DNA of 64,000 bases from Escherichia phage vB_EcoM_G50: sequence record NC_054917.1; one strand, written 5' to 3'. The position numbers were made by a program, and so were the translations under genes. The notes under the pieces are model-generated. The model worked only from the letters and a program-made list of their open reading frames with translations, did no database searches and was not told where the DNA came from. Shown piece by piece: positions 10,864-62,741 of this stretch. Each line of letters begins with the position of its first letter. The first letter of the stretch is position 1.

Positions 10864-11341
10864 AGAAGTTTCTATTCCTAAAATGGGTCTTAAACACTAT
10901 AACATTTTAAAAGATGTTAAAGGTCCTGATGAAAATTTAAAACTTCTTATTGATTCTATTTGTCCGAATTTATCACCGGCAGAAGTTGATTTCGTTTCTA
11001 TTCATTTATTGGAATTTAATGGAAAGATTAAATCTCGCAAAGAAATAGATGGTTATACTTATGACATTAATGATGTTTATGTATGCCAAAGATTGGAATT
11101 TCAATACCAAGGAAATACATTTTATTTTAGACCTCCTGGAAAATTTGAACAATTTTTAACGGTGAGCGATATGTTATCCAAATGCTTGCTTAAGGTCAAT
11201 GATGAAGTTAAAGAAATTAATTTTCTTGAGATGCCAGCATTCGTTTTAAAATGGGCAAATGATATTTTTACAACTTTAGCAATTCCTGGCCCTAATGGTC
11301 CAATAACCGGAATTGGCAATATTATTGGATTATTTGAATGA
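10808..11341 (+). CDS. 28: Baseplate hub distal subunit gp28
   Basis: 177 aa, overlaps 3' end of gene 27 in another frame as in T4. Confidence 0.85.
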
Positions 11342-14213: not shown

Positions 14214-15178
14214 TGTATTCTTTAGAGGAATTTAATAATCAAGCAATAAACGCAGATTTCCAACGTAATAATATGTTTAGCTGCGTTTTTGCGACAACTC
14301 CATCAACTAAAAGCTCTTCGTTGATAAGTTCAATTAGCAACTTTTCTTATAATAACTTGGGCCTAAATTCAGATTGGTTAGGATTAACTCAAGGCGATAT
14401 TAATCAGGGAATTACCACGCTAATTACTGCTGGCACACAAAAACTGATAAGAAAATCAGGGGTTAGTAAATATCTTATTGGTGCCATGAGTCAACGCACA
14501 GTTCAAAGTTTATTGGGCTCATTTACAGTTGGTACATATTTAATTGATTTCTTTAATATGGCATATAACTCATCTGGATTGATGATATACTCTGTAAAAA
14601 TGCCAGAGAATAGATTATCCTATGAAACTGACTGGAACTATAATTCTCCTAATATTCGTATAACTGGGAGAGAATTAGACCCTTTGGTTATTTCATTTAG
14701 AATGGATTCAGAAGCTTGTAACTATCGTGCAATGCAAGACTGGGTTAACGCTGTTCAAGACCCAGTAACTGGATTGCGTGCTTTGCCGCAAGATGTCGAG
14801 GCAGATATTCAGGTTAATCTTCATGCTCGTAATGGATTACCTCATACTGCTGTGATGTTCACTGGATGCATTCCAGTGTCAGTGAGTGCTCCTGAGTTAT
14901 CATATGATGGAGATAACCAAATAACTACATTTGATGTTACTTTTGCGTATAGAGTCATGCAGGCTGGGTCAGTTGATAGACAAGCTGCGCTTGAATGGCT
15001 TGAATCTGCTGCTATAAATGGCATTCAAAGCGTTCTCGGAAATAGTGGAGGTGTTACTGGACTATCTAATTCGCTTTCACGACTTAGTAGATTAGGAGGA
15101 ACTGCGGGAAGCATTTCAAACATTAATACTATGACGGGAATTGTCAACTCGCAAAGTAAAATATTAGGAGCAATATAA
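14213..15178 (+). CDS. 54: Baseplate tail-tube initiator gp54
   Basis: 321-aa ORF following gene 48, size and position as T4 gp54. Confidence 0.9.
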   Translation: MYSLEEFNNQAINADFQRNNMFSCVFATTPSTKSSSLISSISNFSYNNLGLNSDWLGLTQGDINQGITTLITAGTQKLIRKSGVSKYLIGAMSQRTVQSLLGSFTVGTYLIDFFNMAYNSSGLMIYSVKMPENRLSYETDWNYNSPNIRITGRELDPLVISFRMDSEACNYRAMQDWVNAVQDPVTGLRALPQDVEADIQVNLHARNGLPHTAVMFTGCIPVSVSAPELSYDGDNQITTFDVTFAYRVMQAGSVDRQAALEWLESAAINGIQSVLGNSGGVTGLSNSLSRLSRLGGTAGSISNINTMTGIVNSQSKILGAI

Positions 15179-15210: not shown

Positions 15211-15497
15211 TTACGGAATGAAATAAAAGCAGCAACTGAAGCAACTAAACTGTCTTCAATATAAACTTCAATTTTTACCGGAGCTTCTGACTCAAATTTA
15301 CCTGTTACTACACCTTGGAAAATACTTTCAGTCTGCTCTGGCTTTGAAAAATTTTCAGAAGGAAAAATTCCGAACTTTTTATCTGTTCCAAAAATTTTGA
15401 TAAATTCATCGTAAACTGCTTCATTAAAAGCATTATCAGCAGGAATAACGCCTTCAACTACAAGTTCTTGACCTAAAAAGCGTAAAGAAGATTTCAT
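15207..15497 (-). CDS. Hypothetical protein (T4 alt.-3 position)
   Basis: 96-aa ORF with GAGGAA Shine-Dalgarno; early-type promoter immediately upstream. Confidence 0.65.
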   Translation of the reverse strand: MKSSLRFLGQELVVEGVIPADNAFNEAVYDEFIKIFGTDKKFGIFPSENFSKPEQTESIFQGVVTGKFESEAPVKIEVYIEDSLVASVAAFISFRK

Positions 15498-15528
15498 TTT
15501 GTGTTCCTCATGTTATGTAAGTAAAATT

Positions 15529-15558
15529 ATTATAACACAACACGAGGGACTTGTAAAC
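15529..15558 (-). promoter_or_regulatory. Early-type promoter (-10 TATAAT, -35 GTTTAC) for the 96-aa ORF
   Basis: Plus strand attata ... 18 nt ... gtaaac; part of a ~56-bp segment nearly identical to 31281-31336. Confidence 0.45.
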
Positions 15559-17615
15559 TACATTTTGAACTTTTTAGACATTCCGTTGATGTTAACCAAA
15601 GAAGCCAAGATTTGAGAAACTTCGTTTTCCTCTTCTTTTGATTCTTCTACAAGGAATTGATTAAATCCAGCCATTGGACGAACTTCACCAGTTTCCATCA
15701 GATGATCGCCATCATATACCGATTCTTCTAATTGTTCAGAAGGAGGAACGATTGTGCCTTCGATTAAATACTTGTTATAAGCAGTTTCTTTCATCATGTA
15801 CGTGCTCACTTTATTAATCTTCAGCAAAATTCCACGCGGTAAAATAACTTCAGCTTCTGATGGAAATCCTGATAAATGACCTGGAACGATAACTTTGATT
15901 CGCTCAGCTCCTTTTATTACCATACCTACGCTAGTTTCAGCATCTTCATTAGCATATGCGGAATGACTACCCGTATGCATTAAATCTTCAGCATCAACTG
16001 AACCTTCTCCTTCACCAGAAAATACTGCACTGGAATCATCTAGGGCCATATAGTTTTTACCATACTCACCGAAGATATTTGGTTTAAGCGATGTGGATAC
16101 GAAGTTCTTGAAATAGAACATTTTATTTTCAATATTATGACGTAAAGTTTTAAAGGTAACTTCTTGTCCACGGTAAAGTGTAGTTCCTGGAGGAAGAACT
16201 GATCCTTTGGCAAAGGCAGAATCCATTGTCTCGATGTGTTTAATAGCTCGTTCCATGTATTCTTCACGGGTAGAATCTGGTTTACCCAAGAGGAACGAGT
16301 TCATTTCAACATATGAATCTGCACAATAATCTTCAATTACATCGGACTCAGCCTGAGTTAATCCTTTTGGGGGTACTTCAGTACTTGCATATTCATACGC
16401 TTGAGAAGCAGACTCATTAATCAATTTATAAATGCCATTCATGACAAATTGAATAATAGCTACCTTTTCATCTGGCGTGGCTTTAGAACCTTTAACTAAA
16501 TCATTGACAATTTTCTTAATAACATCAAAGCTATTAGAAATATTAATGTCAGCGAGATCGCTTAAAATTTTATCAGTTTTATAATCAAAAAATTCTTTAT
16601 TCTTTAAATATTCCTGAGAACCTTGATATGTTATATCGCTCTGTAACTTGATAGATGGATCACGTAAACGTGCATGAGCCAATGCAATATGATTTCGGAA
16701 GCTTTCTAATTCATAATCGCTAGATTTAAAACGAGAAGCACTTCTCATACCACCGATAGCTCCTTTGCTGAAGTTTGAACCAACCTGAATAACGCCAGAG
16801 TTCATTGGTCCTTCTGCTTTATATACCGGAACTTTAGATTCAAACTCTTGATATTTCTTAGCAGCGAAGCTATCACCCTGAAGTGAAGCATCGACAGTAG
16901 AATATTGAGCTTGTGCTGCTAATCGACGACTAATTTTAGTTTTCTGAATAACAGCTTGATCCGTACGCTTATCATTTTCTAAAGCAATAGAAGCAGCAAC
17001 AGCAACAGCTTTAGGAACAGCATTACCTGTTTTAACGTCTACATAAACATCACCAACCTTTGATTCAACCTTTGTGAATAACTCAGTTGAAATAGGAGGT
17101 ACACCTGGAATGTCTTCTAAATTGGCATTTTTACGGTAAACCATAATATATGTGTACTTTTTATCGTAATCCCAGATTTCCTTTAAAAGAACATATCGAC
17201 CTGCTCCTTTAGTACGCACTAAACGATCGGCAATAACTTGCATTTGACGAGCTGCACCGTTTGTTTTACTCTTTAATACGCGGAATAGGCATGCGTCAAT
17301 TTTGTACTGTTTCATTGTCTGAAGAGCAGTATCAAAAACCGCATTAATGACACCAATTGGATTTCCACCTAAGTTTTTAAGTTTAACTAATGATAGTTTC
17401 TCATTAACGCCTATCATTACGATATGCATCATTTTATCGCCTGGCTTAACGTTTTTATTTGTATCACCGCCAGAGGTGTATGTACAAAATCTAAATCCAG
17501 GAAGCACACTTTCTTCACCGGCTTGAATAGCAAAAATTTGAGGTATTTTATGCTTAGGATTTAAGTTAACAACCGGCGCCGAAGCGCCGTCAAATAATTC
17601 TGTAATAAGTTCCAT
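15558..17615 (-). CDS. Alt-like ADP-ribosyltransferase, second full-length paralog
   Basis: 685 aa; N-terminal ~300 aa closely parallel the adjacent Alt (MELITELFD..., CTYTSGGDTN, YKIDAC, QVIADRL); C-terminal ART signature YRG ... NFVSTSL ... AEVILPRG. Confidence 0.85.
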   Translation of the reverse strand: MELITELFDGASAPVVNLNPKHKIPQIFAIQAGEESVLPGFRFCTYTSGGDTNKNVKPGDKMMHIVMIGVNEKLSLVKLKNLGGNPIGVINAVFDTALQTMKQYKIDACLFRVLKSKTNGAARQMQVIADRLVRTKGAGRYVLLKEIWDYDKKYTYIMVYRKNANLEDIPGVPPISTELFTKVESKVGDVYVDVKTGNAVPKAVAVAASIALENDKRTDQAVIQKTKISRRLAAQAQYSTVDASLQGDSFAAKKYQEFESKVPVYKAEGPMNSGVIQVGSNFSKGAIGGMRSASRFKSSDYELESFRNHIALAHARLRDPSIKLQSDITYQGSQEYLKNKEFFDYKTDKILSDLADINISNSFDVIKKIVNDLVKGSKATPDEKVAIIQFVMNGIYKLINESASQAYEYASTEVPPKGLTQAESDVIEDYCADSYVEMNSFLLGKPDSTREEYMERAIKHIETMDSAFAKGSVLPPGTTLYRGQEVTFKTLRHNIENKMFYFKNFVSTSLKPNIFGEYGKNYMALDDSSAVFSGEGEGSVDAEDLMHTGSHSAYANEDAETSVGMVIKGAERIKVIVPGHLSGFPSEAEVILPRGILLKINKVSTYMMKETAYNKYLIEGTIVPPSEQLEESVYDGDHLMETGEVRPMAGFNQFLVEESKEEENEVSQILASLVNINGMSKKFKM

Positions 17616-17618
17616 GAT

Positions 17619-19715
17619 TTATCCTTGAACGAACTTGTAAGGCATGTTTGTAATATCTATGCAAGACGCAATAATTCCAAGAGATGATTCTACTTTCTGT
17701 TTAACATTTGATGAAACAAACGATGCAAAGTCAACTCTGTCTTCTATTTCAATATCATCTGTCATTGCAACTACTTCACCGGTTTCCATTAGACGGTCAC
17801 CGTCATAAATGACTGATTCGGTGAGCTCTTCTGTAGTCATAACTTCAGCTTGAATGAGTTTTGTATTATTAGATGTTGTTCCGTCATTATTAGAAGCATC
17901 AGTTATTTTATTAACTTTGACCATCAATCCGCGTGGTAGAATAACTTCAGCTTCTGTTGCTATTCCGAGACTTCCTGGATATACAACATTAACTTTATGA
18001 GCTCCATCAATTGCCCATCCTATTTGAACTTTAACGTATTCAGGATTTTCTTTATACGCTCTTATTTCGTTTGGATTAATAGTTATTCCTTCTTCATTTT
18101 TATCAACTGTTAATTCATTACGAGCTTCTGGTTCTAAAAGACCAATACCAGCATGCGTAATTCCAAAACGTCCAAAAATGATAGGAGTTAAAGAAGTAGA
18201 TACAAAATTTCTGAAATAGAACACTTTATTTTTAACTAGCGCTTCGTATATAGGAGCAGTCATACTTTGAGCACGATAAACTGTAATGCCTTCTGGTATA
18301 CGGTCACCATTTTCAAAAGCTGAATCTAAATTATTTATCGCAGATTCAATTTCTTTTTCACTCATTACATCATATCGTTCTGGATTGTAGCGGCCTAAAA
18401 GAAGATTATTGATGTCAGTATATCCTGATCCACAATACTCTCTAATGCCGCGCTTTTGTGATGGAGTATATTTAGAACCATCACGGGCAATAGTAATATC
18501 AATCATTGGACCTGCACCAATTCCAGAAAAGCTATAAATCATTCGTTTGAGGAATTTAGTTTTTGCTGCGTTCCAGGAATTTTTAGTTATTTCTTCCCAG
18601 ACTTCATCTGGCTGTCCTTTACGGGTTTTATTATGTTTATCAAGCCAATTATCTTTATATTCTTCAAAGAATTGATTAACAGCTGCTGCGTATTTCTCTA
18701 AACATTTTATTGAAGTGGTTGGTTCATTTTTAATCGCATTAAGAATTACATCTTTAATTTTTTCAGAAACTTCATTAACCTCACTTTTTGAAAAGAATTT
18801 ATAGTCATAGTGAAGTTCATCTGCGGTTCCTTCGGCAATGATTTTTGCTGCCTTAGTTTTAGAAGCTAATGAATTAATTCCAAGCTTCATTTCTTCTGCT
18901 TCGGGAATTAAAGGAGCTGTAGCAGGTTTATTGAAATTAGCTGCGGTAGATTCATATTTCTGGAATAATTCACTTTCAAATCTAGAAGATTCCAATGACT
19001 GACTTTGCGCAATTGCTCTACGGGAAATTTTAACTTTAACGATTACAGCTTGGTCAGAACGTTTATCGTTTTCTTGCGCAATAGATGCCGCAATTGCCTC
19101 ATTTTTAGTTACTTGAGCTCCAGTATCTTTATTGATATAAACATCGCCGACTTTCGATTCAACTTTAGTAAAGAGCTCGGTACTAATTTCCGGAACTCCT
19201 GGAATGTCTTCTAGTGATACATTTTTGCGATGTATAAGAATATATGCATACTTTTTATCGTAATCCCAGAGTTCCTTAAGAAGGACGTATCTGCCACCTG
19301 AACGACTGCGGATAAGTCTATCAGCAATAACTTGAATTTGTCGAGCTTGACCAGCAGTTTTAGACTTAAGAATACGAAGCATACAGGCATCAATTTTATA
19401 CTGACGCATCGTTTGCATCGCAACAGTAAAAACTGAATTGATGTAATTAATTGGGCTTGGACCGAGACCTTTCAATTTAGCAATTGAACCTTTAGCAGTT
19501 AATGTAAAAGGAACAATGTGCATCATTTTATCGCCCATCTTTAGATCACGGTTAGTATCACCTCCAGATGTATAGGTACATAAACGAAAGCCTGGTTGTT
19601 CAATTGCGTCATCAACATGAACTGAAAAAATTTGCGGTATTTTCTTCTTTGGATTTAAGTTTGTAATCGGAAGAGTAGTATCTTCGTCAAATAATTCTGT
19701 AATGAGTTCCATCAT
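17619..19715 (-). CDS. alt: Alt ADP-ribosyltransferase (head-packaged; modifies host RNA polymerase alpha)
   Basis: 698 aa, MMELITELFDEDTTLPITNLNPKKKIPQIF...; R-S-E type ART motifs (VYRAQ, FVSTSLTP, EAEVILPRG); position upstream of ligase as in T4; late promoter upstream. Confidence 0.9.
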   Translation of the reverse strand: MMELITELFDEDTTLPITNLNPKKKIPQIFSVHVDDAIEQPGFRLCTYTSGGDTNRDLKMGDKMMHIVPFTLTAKGSIAKLKGLGPSPINYINSVFTVAMQTMRQYKIDACMLRILKSKTAGQARQIQVIADRLIRSRSGGRYVLLKELWDYDKKYAYILIHRKNVSLEDIPGVPEISTELFTKVESKVGDVYINKDTGAQVTKNEAIAASIAQENDKRSDQAVIVKVKISRRAIAQSQSLESSRFESELFQKYESTAANFNKPATAPLIPEAEEMKLGINSLASKTKAAKIIAEGTADELHYDYKFFSKSEVNEVSEKIKDVILNAIKNEPTTSIKCLEKYAAAVNQFFEEYKDNWLDKHNKTRKGQPDEVWEEITKNSWNAAKTKFLKRMIYSFSGIGAGPMIDITIARDGSKYTPSQKRGIREYCGSGYTDINNLLLGRYNPERYDVMSEKEIESAINNLDSAFENGDRIPEGITVYRAQSMTAPIYEALVKNKVFYFRNFVSTSLTPIIFGRFGITHAGIGLLEPEARNELTVDKNEEGITINPNEIRAYKENPEYVKVQIGWAIDGAHKVNVVYPGSLGIATEAEVILPRGLMVKVNKITDASNNDGTTSNNTKLIQAEVMTTEELTESVIYDGDRLMETGEVVAMTDDIEIEDRVDFASFVSSNVKQKVESSLGIIASCIDITNMPYKFVQG

Positions 19716-23718: not shown

Positions 23719-24084
23719 TTAAATATCAAATTCGTTAAGAACTACATCAAAGATCGCTTCAAGATGCTCAGGTTTAGCTCTGTTACTCAGAATATGACGA
23801 ATCCAAGTTTTAACCAGAAGCTTACGATTGACGCCATTCCAGCAAGGATGAGTACCTAAATCGCGTTGACGGAAATCATCATCTAATGCGATTTTAAAAG
23901 AAGAACCTTCTTTCGTGATTGAAACCGTGATGCCATTTTCAAATCGCATATAAACGTAGTTAGGAGTCATATACTGTTCAATTTCGCATACTGATCCATT
24001 TTGATGTTTCCAAAGGCAGATAGTATCAATAGAACCTGCAATACCATTAGAAACATATTTACGTTCAAAGTTGATGTAGTTCAT
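23719..24084 (-). CDS. Hypothetical protein
   Basis: 121-aa ORF preceded by terminator hairpin and promoter-like region. Confidence 0.65.
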   Translation of the reverse strand: MNYINFERKYVSNGIAGSIDTICLWKHQNGSVCEIEQYMTPNYVYMRFENGITVSITKEGSSFKIALDDDFRQRDLGTHPCWNGVNRKLLVKTWIRHILSNRAKPEHLEAIFDVVLNEFDI

Positions 24085-24152
24085 TTTTATTCTCCGAGAT
24101 GTTTAATTGCGGTACAGGTATATAATATCATATCCTGTACCAAAGTAAACAA

Positions 24153-24485: not shown

Positions 24486-24512
24486 TTTATTCTCCTTTGT
24501 TTGTGTAAGATA

Positions 24513-24542
24513 ATACTATCACAAAGGAACTATACTGTAAAC
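24513..24542 (-). promoter_or_regulatory. Early-type promoter upstream of the 110-aa ORF
   Basis: Plus-strand atacta ... 18 nt ... gtaaac; flanking inverted repeat tttgtg/cacaaa. Confidence 0.4.
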
Positions 24543-24571
24543 AACTTTATGCAATCTTTGGAAAATAAAAA

Positions 24572-24591
24572 AGGACTCCCGAAGGAGTCCT
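24572..24591 (-). terminator. Terminator hairpin
   Basis: aggactcc-cgaa-ggagtcct followed on minus strand by TTTTTTATTTT. Confidence 0.55.
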
Positions 24592-24595
24592 CAAC

Positions 24596-27216: not shown

Positions 27217-27449
27217 AGTACGCCATACACCCTTTGTGCTTCAACTAATCCATCAAAATCCAGTTTAAGATGTGTTATTTGGTCACCATCACCTGGATTC
27301 ACAATTACTAATACTGAACGAGGAGTTTCGGTAATGACACGAACCGATGTTTCAGGAAATCGTTCAGAAACCTTATTTACCAATTCCTGAGCAAATAGTT
27401 TAACTTTTTCTTGGAATTCTTTAGTAGTAATTGGTTTTTCACTTAGCAT
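27213..27449 (-). CDS. Hypothetical protein
   Basis: 78-aa ORF. Confidence 0.6.
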   Translation of the reverse strand: MLSEKPITTKEFQEKVKLFAQELVNKVSERFPETSVRVITETPRSVLVIVNPGDGDQITHLKLDFDGLVEAQRVYGVL

Positions 27450-27970
27450 GTTGATCCCAGCTCCTTACTTTCAACGTTTTTAACTAATTTGACAGAAACT
27501 AATTCGGCATCTTGGGTAATCATTACCGGGCCTTCTTCATACTCTTCAAGATATTCTAGAGCTTTCTTTTTAGCTTCTTCCTTCGTATCAGTTTGAGCAT
27601 AGATATAAAACATACAACCAGTAATACCTACTACTTTCCACTTAATTTCTTTATCAGTTTTAATTTCAAATTTACTGATAGAGTCATCTTTTTGAACTTC
27701 TTCGAAAAAATAATATTCTGACATATAAGTAATTGAAAATAGCGGGCTTTCTTTATAAGATTCGCCCATTACATCAACAGCTTTATACCAGCAATCGTCA
27801 ATTTCGCGTTTAATGCTAATAACATTTTTCGCAGGATCTATTTTTACTTTAAATGAATTTTCCCCAATAAACTGAGCAATTCGTTTATTAGCCCCACAAG
27901 TTTCATTAAAAATATCTTTATATCCAGCTTTAAAGCGATAAACCTTATCTTCTTCAAACCATTCGCTCAT
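27443..27970 (-). CDS. Hypothetical protein
   Basis: 175-aa ORF with Shine-Dalgarno; promoter-like element upstream. Confidence 0.65.
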   Translation of the reverse strand: MSEWFEEDKVYRFKAGYKDIFNETCGANKRIAQFIGENSFKVKIDPAKNVISIKREIDDCWYKAVDVMGESYKESPLFSITYMSEYYFFEEVQKDDSISKFEIKTDKEIKWKVVGITGCMFYIYAQTDTKEEAKKKALEYLEEYEEGPVMITQDAELVSVKLVKNVESKELGSTC

Positions 27971-27991: not shown

Positions 27992-28030
27992 GGTAGAGCT
28001 ATAATATCACAACTCTACCGTAAAGTAAAC
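27992..28030 (-). promoter_or_regulatory. Early-type promoter with inverted repeat around the -10 element
   Basis: ggtagag-N14-ctctacc inverted repeat enclosing ataata; gtaaac at 28025-28030. Confidence 0.4.
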
Positions 28031-30781: not shown

Positions 30782-31278
30782 AAAGTTTTAATAACCTCTA
30801 TAATATCGTCTTGAGAAAGACCGTTAATTAAAATATGATGTTCAGCAGGAGATTTAGAAATTTTAAAGCATGCCTCAACATCTTCTGCCATATCCGATGC
30901 GCTACGATTTGGATTACTAATTCCAAGACGATGTTTTCCCGTTAAAGGATTAACGATGATATAGCATTTACAGTTGTTAATATGAACATTAGGTTGAGTC
31001 TGATTAATGAACACATCACAATCATATTTCGCAAGCTGATTTTCTAAAAAGACTTTCATCTCCTCAACTGCATCAGGAAGCATATCACGAGCTTGCTCAA
31101 GACGACGATTTCGATATTCTTTAATGGTCGTTTTCCGCTTGACTTGCTTAGCTAAATCTTTCTTAAGATCGGTGATATATCCAACTCGACGATTTCCTTT
31201 AAATACAGAAATACCATCTGTAGTATCACCGTATGCTTCAACGACCATTTCAGTAGTAATAAGCTGTAAATCCATCAT
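30772..31278 (-). CDS. alc: Alc-position protein (T4 Alc blocks elongation on cytosine-containing DNA)
   Basis: 168-aa ORF (167 from second Met) between spanins and rnlA; call by position and size only. Confidence 0.7.
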   Translation of the reverse strand: MMDLQLITTEMVVEAYGDTTDGISVFKGNRRVGYITDLKKDLAKQVKRKTTIKEYRNRRLEQARDMLPDAVEEMKVFLENQLAKYDCDVFINQTQPNVHINNCKCYIIVNPLTGKHRLGISNPNRSASDMAEDVEACFKISKSPAEHHILINGLSQDDIIEVIKTLCN

Positions 31279-31306
31279 AAAGTCCTCATGTTATGTCAGT
31301 AAGACT

Positions 31307-31336
31307 ACTGTAACACAACACGAGGGACTTGTAAAC
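31307..31336 (-). promoter_or_regulatory. Promoter upstream of the alc-position ORF
   Basis: actgta ... 18 nt ... gtaaac; ~56-bp segment nearly identical to 15503-15558. Confidence 0.45.
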
Positions 31337-40138: not shown

Positions 40139-40381
40139 TCAAACAGACTTTTTCACAATTTTCCAATCAGCTTTAAACTGATCAACGTCAGAATGGTAAA
40201 TCCAGAATCCTGCGCTTTCTCCATCCTCATAAAGAGGGCATCCATCGCATTCATCTTCCCATCCCATATCACGCAAAAGACGTTCAGCTTTTTCAACAAG
40301 TTCAGAATCTTTACCGATGATATTAAAATACCATTTACCTCTAACTTCTGAATCTTTAATGCTCTGACGTTGTAATCTCAT
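40139..40381 (-). CDS. Hypothetical protein (frd.3 position)
   Basis: 80-aa ORF; promoter-like element upstream. Confidence 0.6.
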   Translation of the reverse strand: MRLQRQSIKDSEVRGKWYFNIIGKDSELVEKAERLLRDMGWEDECDGCPLYEDGESAGFWIYHSDVDQFKADWKIVKKSV

Positions 40382-40406
40382 TTTATTCTCCTTAGTTGAT
40401 AGGGTA

Positions 40407-40436
40407 ATAGTATCACACTACTACCCTTCTGTAAAC
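40407..40436 (-). promoter_or_regulatory. Early-type promoter upstream of the 80-aa ORF
   Basis: atagta ... 18 nt ... gtaaac with inverted repeat agggta/taccct around the -10. Confidence 0.45.
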
Positions 40437-41164: not shown

Positions 41165-41195
41165 TGTTTTGTGAAAAAATTTTTGAAATAAAAAA

Positions 41196-58305: not shown

Positions 58306-58335
58306 CGTTTTGTGAAAAAAATTTTGAAATAAAAA

Positions 58336-61384: not shown

Positions 61385-61412
61385 TTTCTGTTCCTCCGTA
61401 GTTGATAAGATA

Positions 61413-61442
61413 ATAATACCACAGAGGAACAGTCTTGTAAAC
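61413..61442 (-). promoter_or_regulatory. Early-type promoter upstream of the 37-aa hydrophobic ORF
   Basis: gttgataagataataataccacagaggaacagtcttgtaaac. Confidence 0.4.
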
Positions 61443-62103: not shown

Positions 62104-62137
62104 TTTATTCTCCAAATCCGTATCAGTTGATAGTTGT

Positions 62138-62167
62138 ATAGTACCACAGTCCTTGTGGTATGTAAAC
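62138..62167 (-). promoter_or_regulatory. Early-type promoter downstream of denB
   Basis: gttgatagttgtatagtaccacagtccttgtggtatgtaaac; near-palindrome ccacagtccttgtgg in the spacer. Confidence 0.45.
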
Positions 62168-62183
62168 CGTTTTGTGAAAATTT

Positions 62184-62741
62184 TTAAATGGAAAGATACC
62201 ATCCGTTGTAGTTGCTTTTTCTTACAACCTTACGAAGGTCTTCTCTATCACCGATGAACTTCGGAGTGTACTGGATGACACCTGGATGAATTTCTTTAGT
62301 GTTGAATATAATTATACAGTCAGCGACCTGATGATTCAGAATGGGCCCTAGATTTATTCCAGAACCGTATGGATACTCCCCGCTGCATCCGGTTGTTACC
62401 GAAATCCAACGTGAGTCAGTTTGATGTGTTTTGACTTCTACACGAAGCCCACAGTATTTTGGATGCGCCAATACATCCCATGCGTATGTATACGGGTCAT
62501 TAACATCCTCTTGGCCTTTGTTAACATACCCGCTTAGCCAATCTGCTACAAAAAACTCTGCGTACACAGCGATACGACATCTTTCAATAACTTCTGCTTT
62601 ATCCTGGTTCGGGTTTTGTTTTAGAGAGTATCTTGCTGTATCAGCAATTTTGACCTTCATTTCACTAGTCAAGTCACTGTTCGATAGGGTAAATGTCGGA
62701 ATCTGAAATAGTCTCTGTAAACCTGGATTCGTTTTCTGCAT
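62184..62741 (-). CDS. denB: Endonuclease IV-position protein
   Basis: 185-aa ORF directly upstream of the ndd.x cluster and downstream of rIIB, size as T4 DenB. Confidence 0.8.
   Translation of the reverse strand: MQKTNPGLQRLFQIPTFTLSNSDLTSEMKVKIADTARYSLKQNPNQDKAEVIERCRIAVYAEFFVADWLSGYVNKGQEDVNDPYTYAWDVLAHPKYCGLRVEVKTHQTDSRWISVTTGCSGEYPYGSGINLGPILNHQVADCIIIFNTKEIHPGVIQYTPKFIGDREDLRKVVRKSNYNGWYLSI

Follow-up and report, generated by a model that had tools for sequence, protein, structure and literature searches.

Seven of the twelve early-type promoters predicted in the window, by which we mean the whole 64-kb stretch of phage DNA analyzed here, lie within conserved hairpin-forming sequences that enclose the -10 element, and this hairpin pattern is real and under selection. 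Based on comparison of related sequences and on modeled folds, we consider it probable that these elements are composite promoter/hairpin cassettes, in which RNA hairpins would form only in read-through transcripts, with those of one class (class A) masking the Shine-Dalgarno (SD) sequence and those of the other (class B) marking a cistron boundary.

Early-type promoters in the window

Hundreds of Tequatrovirus (T4-like) genomes match a 4-kb piece around 24111-24141 at 97-99% identity, and we have taken gene names from the annotation of SA20RB and T4. According to these annotated relatives, the minus-strand early regions correspond to 14-45 kb and 56-64 kb of the window. The first block of genes is ordered alt paralogues, 30, 30.1-30.9, rIII, 31, cd, cd.1-cd.5, pseT, alc and rnlA, which is followed by denA, nrd, td, frd, frd.1-3 and 32 through rnh, and then by asiA through motA to 52. 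A search of the whole 64-kb window with Rfam gathering thresholds returned zero matches; by this measure the group I introns of td and nrdB and other curated RNAs are lacking in the stretch, in contrast to T4.

We scanned both strands for GTTTAC followed by a 16-18 nt spacer, a -10 element, an SD and an ATG, with at least four of six matches to TATAAT and with A2 and T6 required in the -10. The scan of the 64-kb window yielded twelve promoters, every one on the minus strand, which we designate by the position of the -35 G (15558, 24150, 24542, 28030, 31336, 40436, 41164, 44465, 55840, 58305, 61442 and 62167). Permitting one mismatch in the -35 element revealed no further promoters in the window. 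Promoters and start sites are consensus predictions, with the start site taken to be ~7 nt past the -10. A preliminary description of this DNA had cited five inverted repeats flanking the -10 regions of putative minus-strand promoters, and all five were found on that strand, each inside a GTTTAC-N17/18-TAnnnT promoter that precedes an SD and ATG. Its list of promoters was incomplete, as it lacked those at 31336 and 61442, which bear the strongest stems.

Seven promoters are enclosed by predicted hairpins of two classes

When each segment from the spacer to +36 was folded as RNA, the cited repeats proved to be the cores of longer stems. Seven of the twelve promoters form 9-18 bp hairpins that enclose the -10 when G-U pairs are permitted, with minimum free energies (MFE) of -12 to -25 kcal/mol and z of -3.2 to -6.7, and the remaining five have z between -1.5 and +0.9. 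The arms of 6-8 bp separated by a 14-15 nt spacer that had been described are therefore real, but they understate the size of the structures, whose predicted stems contain 9-18 pairs. In all seven, the 5' arm is in the spacer and the -10 is in the loop or 3' arm, so that the structure invariably surrounds the -10 and, with it, the start site, and the stems show pair probabilities of 0.89-0.99 within a 220-nt read-through context. The geometry that had been described as constant across sites actually comprises two classes, one of which takes in the SD, and the stems are longer and include G-U pairs.

In the class B promoters at 24150, 28030 and 40436, the stem is centered on the -10 and ends 9-17 nt ahead of a free SD, which has a predicted unpaired probability of 0.47-0.84 that is alike in read-through RNA and in the promoter's own transcript. 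The promoter of the gp30.7 homologue (24122-24150, minus strand) consists of GTTTAC (24150-24145), a 17-nt spacer and TATTAT (24127-24122), with the stop of the upstream ORF, a gp30.8 homologue, located 2 nt ahead of the -35 and the gp30.7 homologue ATG at 24084. Its hairpin (24110-24142, minus strand) has 14 pairs and one bulge around the core GGTACAGG/CCTGTACC, an MFE of -16.1 kcal/mol (z -4.1) and an in-context pair probability of 0.95. The repeat ggtacagg/cctgtacc is present here as cited, with arms at 24141-24134 and 24118-24111, and the 15-nt gap that contains TATTAT is itself mostly paired, leaving a 4-nt loop. The -10 lies within the inner stem and loop, and the SD (GGAG) is free, 17 nt downstream. 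Among 16 homologues, the arms are invariant save for one C-to-U change that yields a G-U pair, and the loop and flanks, including the downstream flank, diverge freely.

The second class B promoter, downstream of cd.3 (28001-28030, minus strand), consists of GTTTAC (28030-28025), an 18-nt spacer and TATTAT (28006-28001), and the cd.3 stop ends 2 nt ahead of its -35. The hairpin (27992-28019, minus strand) features 12 pairs, GGTAGAGTTGTG/TATAGCTCTACC, a 4-nt loop and a free SD, with an MFE of -16.3 kcal/mol (z -4.8); the reported repeat ggtagag/ctctacc forms arms at 28019-28013 and 27998-27992 with a gap of 14. This hairpin also occurs in T4, where the promoter is named Pe133295 and where hairpins matching those of the window are likewise found at alt.-3, 30.7, 30.8 and alc. 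Directly behind the promoter is a 175-aa ORF (27443-27970, minus strand; ATG 27970) that is absent in T4, where the promoter drives cd.2 directly. Such an insertion or deletion at a promoter/hairpin cassette is as expected from the model of promoter-early stem-loop (PeSL) cassettes discussed below.

The third, which precedes the frd.1 homologue (40407-40436, minus strand), consists of GTTTAC (40436-40431), an 18-nt spacer and TACTAT (40412-40407), with an upstream stop that overlaps the -35 G and an ATG at 40381. Its hairpin (40398-40429, minus strand) has approximately 11-14 pairs, AGGGTAGTAGTG/TACTATTACCCT, a 3-5 nt loop, an MFE of -15.9 kcal/mol (z -3.2) and an in-context pair probability of 0.90. 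The cited agggta/taccct arms were located at 40427-40422 and 40406-40401 with a gap of 15; the -10 belongs to the 3' arm, and the SD (AAGGAG) is free.

In the class A promoters at 15558, 24542, 31336 and 61442, the 5' arm just past the -35 is an anti-SD that pairs with an SD close to the ATG. The predicted unpaired probability of the SD is 0.00-0.26 in read-through RNA versus 0.46-0.85 in the transcript of the embedded promoter. At the promoter of the alt.-3 homologue (15529-15558, minus strand; GTTTAC, 18-nt spacer, TATAAT at 15534-15529), the stop of a 685-aa alt paralogue overlaps the -35 G, and the ATG is at 15497. The hairpin (15503-15550, minus strand) has ~15 pairs, GTCCCTCGTGTTGTG/CATAACATGAGGAAC, and an MFE of -19.0 kcal/mol (z -5.3), with the -10 and presumed start site in the loop and the SD (GAGGA) in the 3' arm. 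For the SD, the predicted unpaired probability is 0.46 in the transcript of the embedded promoter and 0.26 in read-through RNA, and changes in relatives preserve the pairing. The repeat tgttat/ataaca was confirmed at 15537-15532 and 15516-15511, where the 5' arm covers the first 3 nt of the -10. Upstream of this site are tandem full-length alt-type ADP-ribosyltransferase paralogues of 685 and 698 aa (15558-17615 and 17619-19715, minus strand) that are 40% identical; T4 has one alt and the short remnants alt.-1 and alt.-2, which its record calls an old partial duplication.

The alc promoter (31307-31336, minus strand; GTTTAC, 18-nt spacer, TACAGT at 31312-31307) follows the rnlA stop by 3 nt and precedes the alc ATG at 31278. 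Its hairpin (31280-31330, minus strand) has 18 pairs, with the SD (GAGGA) in the 3' arm, an MFE of -25.2 kcal/mol (z -5.3) and a predicted SD unpaired probability of 0.01 in read-through RNA versus 0.67 in its own transcript. A 54-nt cassette that extends from GTTTAC to GAGGA is common to this site and that of the alt.-3 homologue (31280-31336 and 15503-15558, minus strand), which are 15.8 kb apart. The two copies are identical at 49 of 54 positions, with all differences between the arms; their flanks are unrelated, as are the downstream genes, and both copies are present in T4 and other relatives.

At promoter 61442 (61413-61442, minus strand; GTTTAC, 18-nt spacer, TATTAT at 61418-61413; ATG 61384), the hairpin (61388-61432, minus strand) has 15 pairs, CTGTTCCTCTGTGGT/ACTACGGAGGAACAG, and an MFE of -23.2 kcal/mol (z -6.7). 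The -10 is in the loop, and the 3' arm includes the SD (GGAGG), 4 nt ahead of the ATG of a 37-aa membrane-type ORF; the SD has a predicted unpaired probability of 0.00 in read-through RNA versus 0.49 in the promoter's own transcript. No ORF of at least 50 aa was detected upstream of this promoter.

The weakest class A hairpin (24492-24529, minus strand) is that of the gp30.8 homologue promoter (24513-24542, minus strand; GTTTAC, 18-nt spacer, TAGTAT at 24518-24513; ATG 24485), at a site whose homologue is annotated as a T4 early promoter in SA20RB. It has 9-10 pairs, TTCCTTTGT/ACAAAGGAG, an MFE of -12.1 kcal/mol (z -3.2) and the SD (AAGGAG) in the 3' arm, which is predicted to be unpaired with probability 0.23 in read-through RNA versus 0.85 in the promoter's own transcript. 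The repeat tttgtg/cacaaa that had been placed at 24495-24524 does exist, but its true position is 24525-24520 and 24505-24500; it represents a shorter alternative that is mutually exclusive with the predicted fold, ttcctttgt/acaaaggag (24529-24492).

The hairpins exceed chance and covary among relatives

The preliminary description had proposed that a shuffle test could reveal the repeats to be no more frequent at promoters than in shuffled sequence; when conducted, the test showed that they exceed chance. In 2000 rounds of shuffling the spacer and downstream bases while keeping the -10, Watson-Crick repeats of at least 6 bp centered on the -10 occurred at a mean of 1.31 promoters, compared with 5/12 in the actual sequences (P=0.0035), and repeats of at least 7 bp occurred at 0.35 compared with 3/12 (P=0.0025). 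With G-U pairs permitted, stems of at least 9 bp are found at 7/12 promoters versus 0.47 in shuffles, and this count was reached in 0/2000. A 9-bp stem is found at 5.1% of the 1549 other TAnnnT hexamers on the same strand. Placement of the repeats around the -10 is largely forced, since only the spacer and the region from +1 to +12 can vary. Chance matches in AT-rich sequence do produce 6-bp repeats at ~1.3 of twelve shuffled promoters, but they are almost certainly not the explanation for those observed; this reading is already refuted, because the shuffle test and both covariation counts described below go against it, as does conservation across genera.

We surveyed 57 sources, which comprise the window and 56 loci from T4, SA20RB and 54 IMG/VR phage loci around gp30.7 and cd, with Cd proteins 60-99% identical to that of the window. 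The survey covered 215 promoters and 135 distinct 60-nt segments. These segments have a mean z of -3.0, with 64% below -2 and 50% below -3, compared with a mean of -0.18 for random 60-mers from the same loci, of which 6.5% are below -2 and 0% below -3. Clustering at 75% identity resulted in 51 families, of which 11 are class A, 14 are class B and 26 lack a hairpin. Class A hairpins start 2 nt past the -35, end 6 nt before the ATG and have ~16 pairs, with a median loop of ~12 nt or more and individual loops of up to ~25 nt. In class B, ~13 pairs close a loop of ~6 nt, and the hairpin extends from 4 nt past the -35 to 20 nt short of the ATG. A candidate third class, featuring a 5-6 bp hairpin within the spacer, was rejected, since that stem length occurs in 33% of spacers versus 28% of shuffled spacers. 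A search of metagenomes for further sequences yielded 6 loci, too few to add statistical power.

The arms are unrelated in sequence between promoters and between phage genera, yet pairing is kept. At the cd.3 promoter, for instance, the window has GGTAGAG/CTCTACC and relatives have GGTAGGA/TCCTACC, which amounts to two adjacent double changes. Among ten class B sequences, 95% of cells are paired, compared with 33-67% when the partner is slid, and four pairs show double changes, with a covariation score that was reached in 0/500 shuffles. Among nine class A sequences, 94.8% are paired, and four double-change pairs were found that include SD/anti-SD positions (0/500 shuffles); the compensatory pairs there are GGAG/CTCC, GAGG/CCTC and GGGG/CCCC. 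Kinship alone can let related sequences beat shuffles without any structure; the case for covariation here is made by the control in which the partner was slid and by how many arm sequences are independent. At the alt.-3 and cd.3 positions, the type of promoter has been swapped in relatives, and most other copies of the cassette have only the promoter consensus in common.

These data bear on whether the repeats are palindromic operators through which a phage or host DNA-binding protein shuts early promoters off. The dyads are centered on the -10, several class B arms contain a GGTAG-like core, and according to Uzan and Miller (2010; PMC3014915) it is not fully clear how T4 early promoters are shut off. 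However, the arms are completely different from one promoter or genus to the next, and their evolution shows compensatory change instead of a conserved motif. Moreover, 5/12 promoters lack any dyad, and the GGTAG-like core appears to correspond to the CTAyC initial transcribed sequence, which is conserved, and not to a motif of its own. The absence of a common half-site across promoters refutes the operator reading, to which we assign hardly any credence, and upholds the earlier suggestion of hairpins in place of a single operator site.

Embedded hairpins rarely occur with upstream terminators and lack U-tracts

The hairpins are associated with a cramped genomic context. In the window, the hairpin promoters 15558, 24150, 28030, 31336 and 40436 abut an upstream stop that ends -3 to +1 relative to the -35 G, and 24542 is an exception. 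In the survey, 90-95% of class A and B promoters have their -35 directly against an upstream stop, with a median of -2 nt for hairpin promoters, versus 41% of hairpin-less promoters. Of the hairpin-less promoters in the window, 41164 and 58305 are preceded by canonical terminators with a GC stem and T-run, 55840 has a 100 nt spacer upstream, and 44465 diverges from late gene 34 and has no upstream gene on the same strand. Across the survey, an upstream intrinsic terminator was found for 5/44 class A, 0/40 class B and 24/51 hairpin-less promoters (cluster-level Fisher p=0.004).

Three hairpin-less promoters, 41164, 58305 and 62167, share an upstream block, tttttcacaaaacg/a, before GTTTAC (41165-41190, 58306-58330 and 62168-62190, minus strand) and a downstream block, TAyTATacaactatc. 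A GC-rich terminator precedes two of the three, and the layout of all three matches the 'classical' T4/PST-type PeSL. The spacer of 62167 contains a small hairpin, CCACA-aggac-TGTGG (62146-62161), with the variants CACCA-nGGA-TGGTG and GCACA-tggaa-GTGTG. This motif recurs across genera (also in survey loci L007, L012-14, L027, L032, L035, L046 and L048), with a stem that varies and a conserved loop containing GGA.

The hairpins could act on read-through transcription as terminators or attenuators at the point where the next transcript begins, which is the role proposed by the authors who described PeSLs. The stem-loop of PeSL211/210 from RB49/phi1 cut lacZ expression like a strong terminator (PMC2839356), and the mutual exclusivity with canonical upstream terminators fits such a role. 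Furthermore, the WebGeSTer/TransTermHP annotation of SA20RB labels three of these hairpins terminators. In our survey, however, a U-tract, defined as at least 5 T in 8 nt, follows 0/84 class A and B hairpins, whose tails are 55-63% A, and the terminator scan of the window did not call the embedded hairpins, identifying separate terminators only (e.g., 24571-24592). The hairpins are thus unlike an intrinsic terminator, in which a GC-rich hairpin is followed by a U-tract; the loops of class A also have terminator-unlike lengths, and downstream genes such as alc would forfeit all read-through expression. Taken together, we consider termination a rather unlikely function. The three SA20RB elements (2497-2546, 11101-11143 and 14983-15020 of survey locus L001) are annotated as rho-independent terminators despite lacking a U-tract, and one of these annotations overlaps an annotated early promoter.

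Evidence on action at the RNA or DNA level

All seven window hairpins have a sense fold that is more stable than the antisense fold, and the class B clusters differ by 4.4 kcal/mol (p=1e-4). This asymmetry was considered as proof of sense RNA and rejected, since it vanishes once the comparison is limited to the outer stems; it arises because the GT-rich extended -10 pairs with the -10, and we therefore gave it no weight. In the outer stems, which are simple Watson-Crick palindromes, there is no strand bias, with 0.4 versus 0.3 G-U per hairpin, and polymorphisms in the stems comprise 10 G-U versus 5 A-C (p=0.30). Because the outer stems are strand-symmetric, the sequence alone does not prove action as sense RNA over DNA or antisense RNA. 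Folded as single-stranded DNA, the same strand reaches -5 to -13 kcal/mol, approximately half the stability of the RNA folds. The coincidence and covariation of class A arms with the SD, the long loops, the short Watson-Crick arms and the weaker DNA folds all favor RNA, as far as sequence can indicate. The tie to upstream genes on the same strand also fits action on read-through RNA.

At the DNA level, cruciforms or single-strand hairpins might modulate promoter opening or the response to supercoiling, or act as hot spots of recombination through which gene cassettes are shuffled, as in the mini-circles of PeSLs. The perfect palindromes of the outer stems without strand bias, the short, AT-rich centers of class B, the occurrence of the 54-nt cassette at two unrelated loci and the swapping of promoter cassettes between relatives are consistent with this reading, and crossovers within PeSL loops have been reported for RB49 (PMC2839356). 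Mutual exclusion of hairpins and terminators is also what a recombination model with a single palindrome in each cassette would lead one to expect. On the other hand, the Watson-Crick-only arms in the window are 6-8 bp with gaps of 14-15 nt, and class B single strands fold as DNA with only -5 to -8 kcal/mol, neither of which is conducive to extrusion. In class A, the loops are long, and the arms show covariation specific to the SD/anti-SD pair, an RNA feature. Hairpins are also lacking where an upstream same-strand gene is missing (e.g., 44465). We therefore regard a DNA-level role as distinctly unlikely. The more specific proposal that class B palindromes are DNA-level switches, which make early promoters sense genome topology or replication state and thereby contribute to the abrupt shut-off that T4 early promoters undergo some minutes into infection, strikes us as very improbable.

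The survey locus from T4 (L016, NC_000866) contains a relevant annotation at 17301-17314, which corresponds to 27999-28012 of the window. A RefSeq note states that these 14 nt are the 'inverted complement of previously reported sequence', correcting Pe133295, and the stretch is exactly the loop between the GGTAGAG/CTCTACC arms. We considered a loop-inversion switch at the cd.3 promoter and rejected it, since the inverted form occurs only in the old partial record X03007.1, which is 1 of 418 matching records, and no inverted 30.7 loop was present among the database records searched. The inverted cd.3 loop therefore most likely reflects an error made in early sequencing through a hairpin and not a natural flip.

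A model for composite promoter/hairpin cassettes

The reading that we favor, in which the cassettes act through RNA hairpins in read-through transcripts, begins with the position of the predicted start site. The 5' arm would be in the promoter spacer, upstream of the start site, and the 3' arm would occupy the first 12-25 transcribed bases. Because the start site is inside the structure, the hairpin can form only in read-through RNA from the upstream gene and never in the transcript of the embedded promoter. We infer that such read-through RNA exists and folds in this manner in vivo, and with it all of the functional consequences. A search of the literature for T4 end-mapping data (Term-seq, cappable-seq) found nothing usable.

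For class A, the 3' arm would be the SD and the 5' arm the anti-SD, such that the SD is masked in read-through RNA. Due to this masking, the read-through RNA would be poorly translatable for that gene, and expression would come essentially from the gene's own early promoter. For class B, the SD would remain free, and the hairpin may serve as a cistron-boundary element on read-through RNA that replaces the terminator hairpin of roomier promoters. Its likeliest role would be as a barrier to 3'-exonucleolytic decay and/or a weak attenuator. This role is the weakest step of the model, because class B shows no predicted effect on the SD, no U-tract and no special link to RegB. The either/or pattern between hairpins and terminators is also broken by 24542, which has a canonical terminator upstream (24571-24592) in addition to its hairpin, with the annotated 30.9 homologue stopping ~53 nt upstream.

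The SD regions of four early genes read GGAGAATAAAA (24088-24098, 24489-24499, 40385-40395 and 62107-62117, minus strand), which perfectly matches the published consensus for strong RegB cleavage, GG*AGRAYARAA. At 24542, the RegB site is partly within the 3' arm of the hairpin, and from its placement the read-through RNA would be protected from RegB. We rejected the possibility that class B acts as a shield beside RegB sites, since GGAGRAYARAA is found at 23% of class A, 23% of class B and 27% of hairpin-less promoters.

In the usual picture, expression of T4 early genes draws on read-through as well as on the promoters of the genes themselves. If class A works as predicted, then a sizeable share of small early genes, including alc, would be translated only from the transcript of their own promoter, and the boundary between immediate-early and delayed-early expression would be sharper. 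Within cramped intergenic spaces, a promoter, a cistron boundary and translation control would be overlaid in ~50 nt. Recognizing these elements is useful for annotation, since automatic tools call such hairpins 'terminators', and for phage engineering, moving such a promoter would mean moving half a hairpin.

Comparison with known systems

Inverted repeats at a core promoter are known from the N4 virion RNA polymerase promoters, which contain 5-7 bp stems with 3-nt loops and are read by a phage polymerase, and from engineered cruciform promoters, which are controlled by DNA hairpins or cruciforms. The inverted repeats described here are likewise at the core promoter, but they surround ordinary sigma70 -35/TGn/-10 elements, with Watson-Crick arms 14-15 nt apart. 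The E. coli REP elements, as in malE-malF, are intercistronic stems free of a U-tract that block 3' exonucleases and uncouple the stability of neighboring cistrons. By analogy, a similar role may apply to class B, which differs in that it has no sequence relationship to REP and is not enriched beside RegB sites. Canonical T4 early terminators, as found upstream of 41164, 58305 and 24542, are likewise intercistronic hairpins right after a gene, and their mutual exclusivity with embedded hairpins suggests that the two are interchangeable. Those terminators have GC-rich stems, tetraloops and T-runs, whereas A-rich tails and an overlap with the -10 characterize the embedded hairpins.

PeSLs are promoter-early stem-loop cassettes of T4-type phages (Arbiol et al., 2010, PMC2839356; Comeau et al., 2014, PMC4122927). 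In RB49/phi1, most stem-loops either occupy the space from the -35 to the -10 or extend over the -10; they are drawn with G-T pairs and have been proposed as terminators/attenuators and recombination sites (PMC2839356). In the T4/PST pair, the stem-loops are just upstream of the promoter according to the legend of Fig. 3 (Comeau et al., 2014, PMC4122927). The cassettes in the window resemble PeSLs in that one intergenic motif beside small variable early genes accommodates an SD and ATG together with a stem-loop and a strong early promoter of the sigma70 type, with the consensus promoter elements and a stable stem-loop present in all seven. They also share a variable position of the stem-loop, including overlap with the -10, and a repetition of cassettes tied to gene gain or loss, which is represented here by the 54-nt cassette, the promoter swaps and the 175-aa ORF. 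The differences are that the arms described here are not Gn/Cn, that there is no U-tract and that our cassettes are known from sequence alone, whereas terminator action and mini-circles belong to the published PeSLs. The -10-overlapping and SD-pairing forms of Tequatrovirus and neighboring genera appear not to be listed in PMC4122927, although older T4 literature may have been missed.

The T4 genes e, soc, 49 and I-TevI have hairpins that sequester the SD, and an internal late promoter makes translatable RNA (Uzan and Miller, 2010, PMC3014915). In these genes, the long transcript pairs the SD and/or AUG, and the shorter RNA from the internal promoter, which does not include the 5' arm, is translated. 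The layout of class A is predicted to be identical, such that class A would represent this logic applied to early promoters. Pairing of the SD is predicted at 15558, 24542, 31336 and 61442 and not at 24150, 28030 and 40436, where class B leaves the SD untouched, and all seven have an internal promoter whose transcript would lack the 5' arm, assuming a start ~7 nt past the -10. The known internal promoter is late (TATAAATA), with a temporal logic of silence early and activity late, whereas the internal promoter here is of the early sigma70 type, which would tie the gene to its own early promoter and leave it silent on read-through RNA. Because the late promoter (TATAAATA) is absent and the timing differs, class A is a variant of this group and not a strict member. 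Taken together, the association of a promoter with a stem-loop is already established in the T4 field through PeSLs and the e/soc/49 hairpins, and the hairpins of the window belong to these described designs, matching both the published PeSL cassettes and the logic of T4 e/soc/49/I-TevI.
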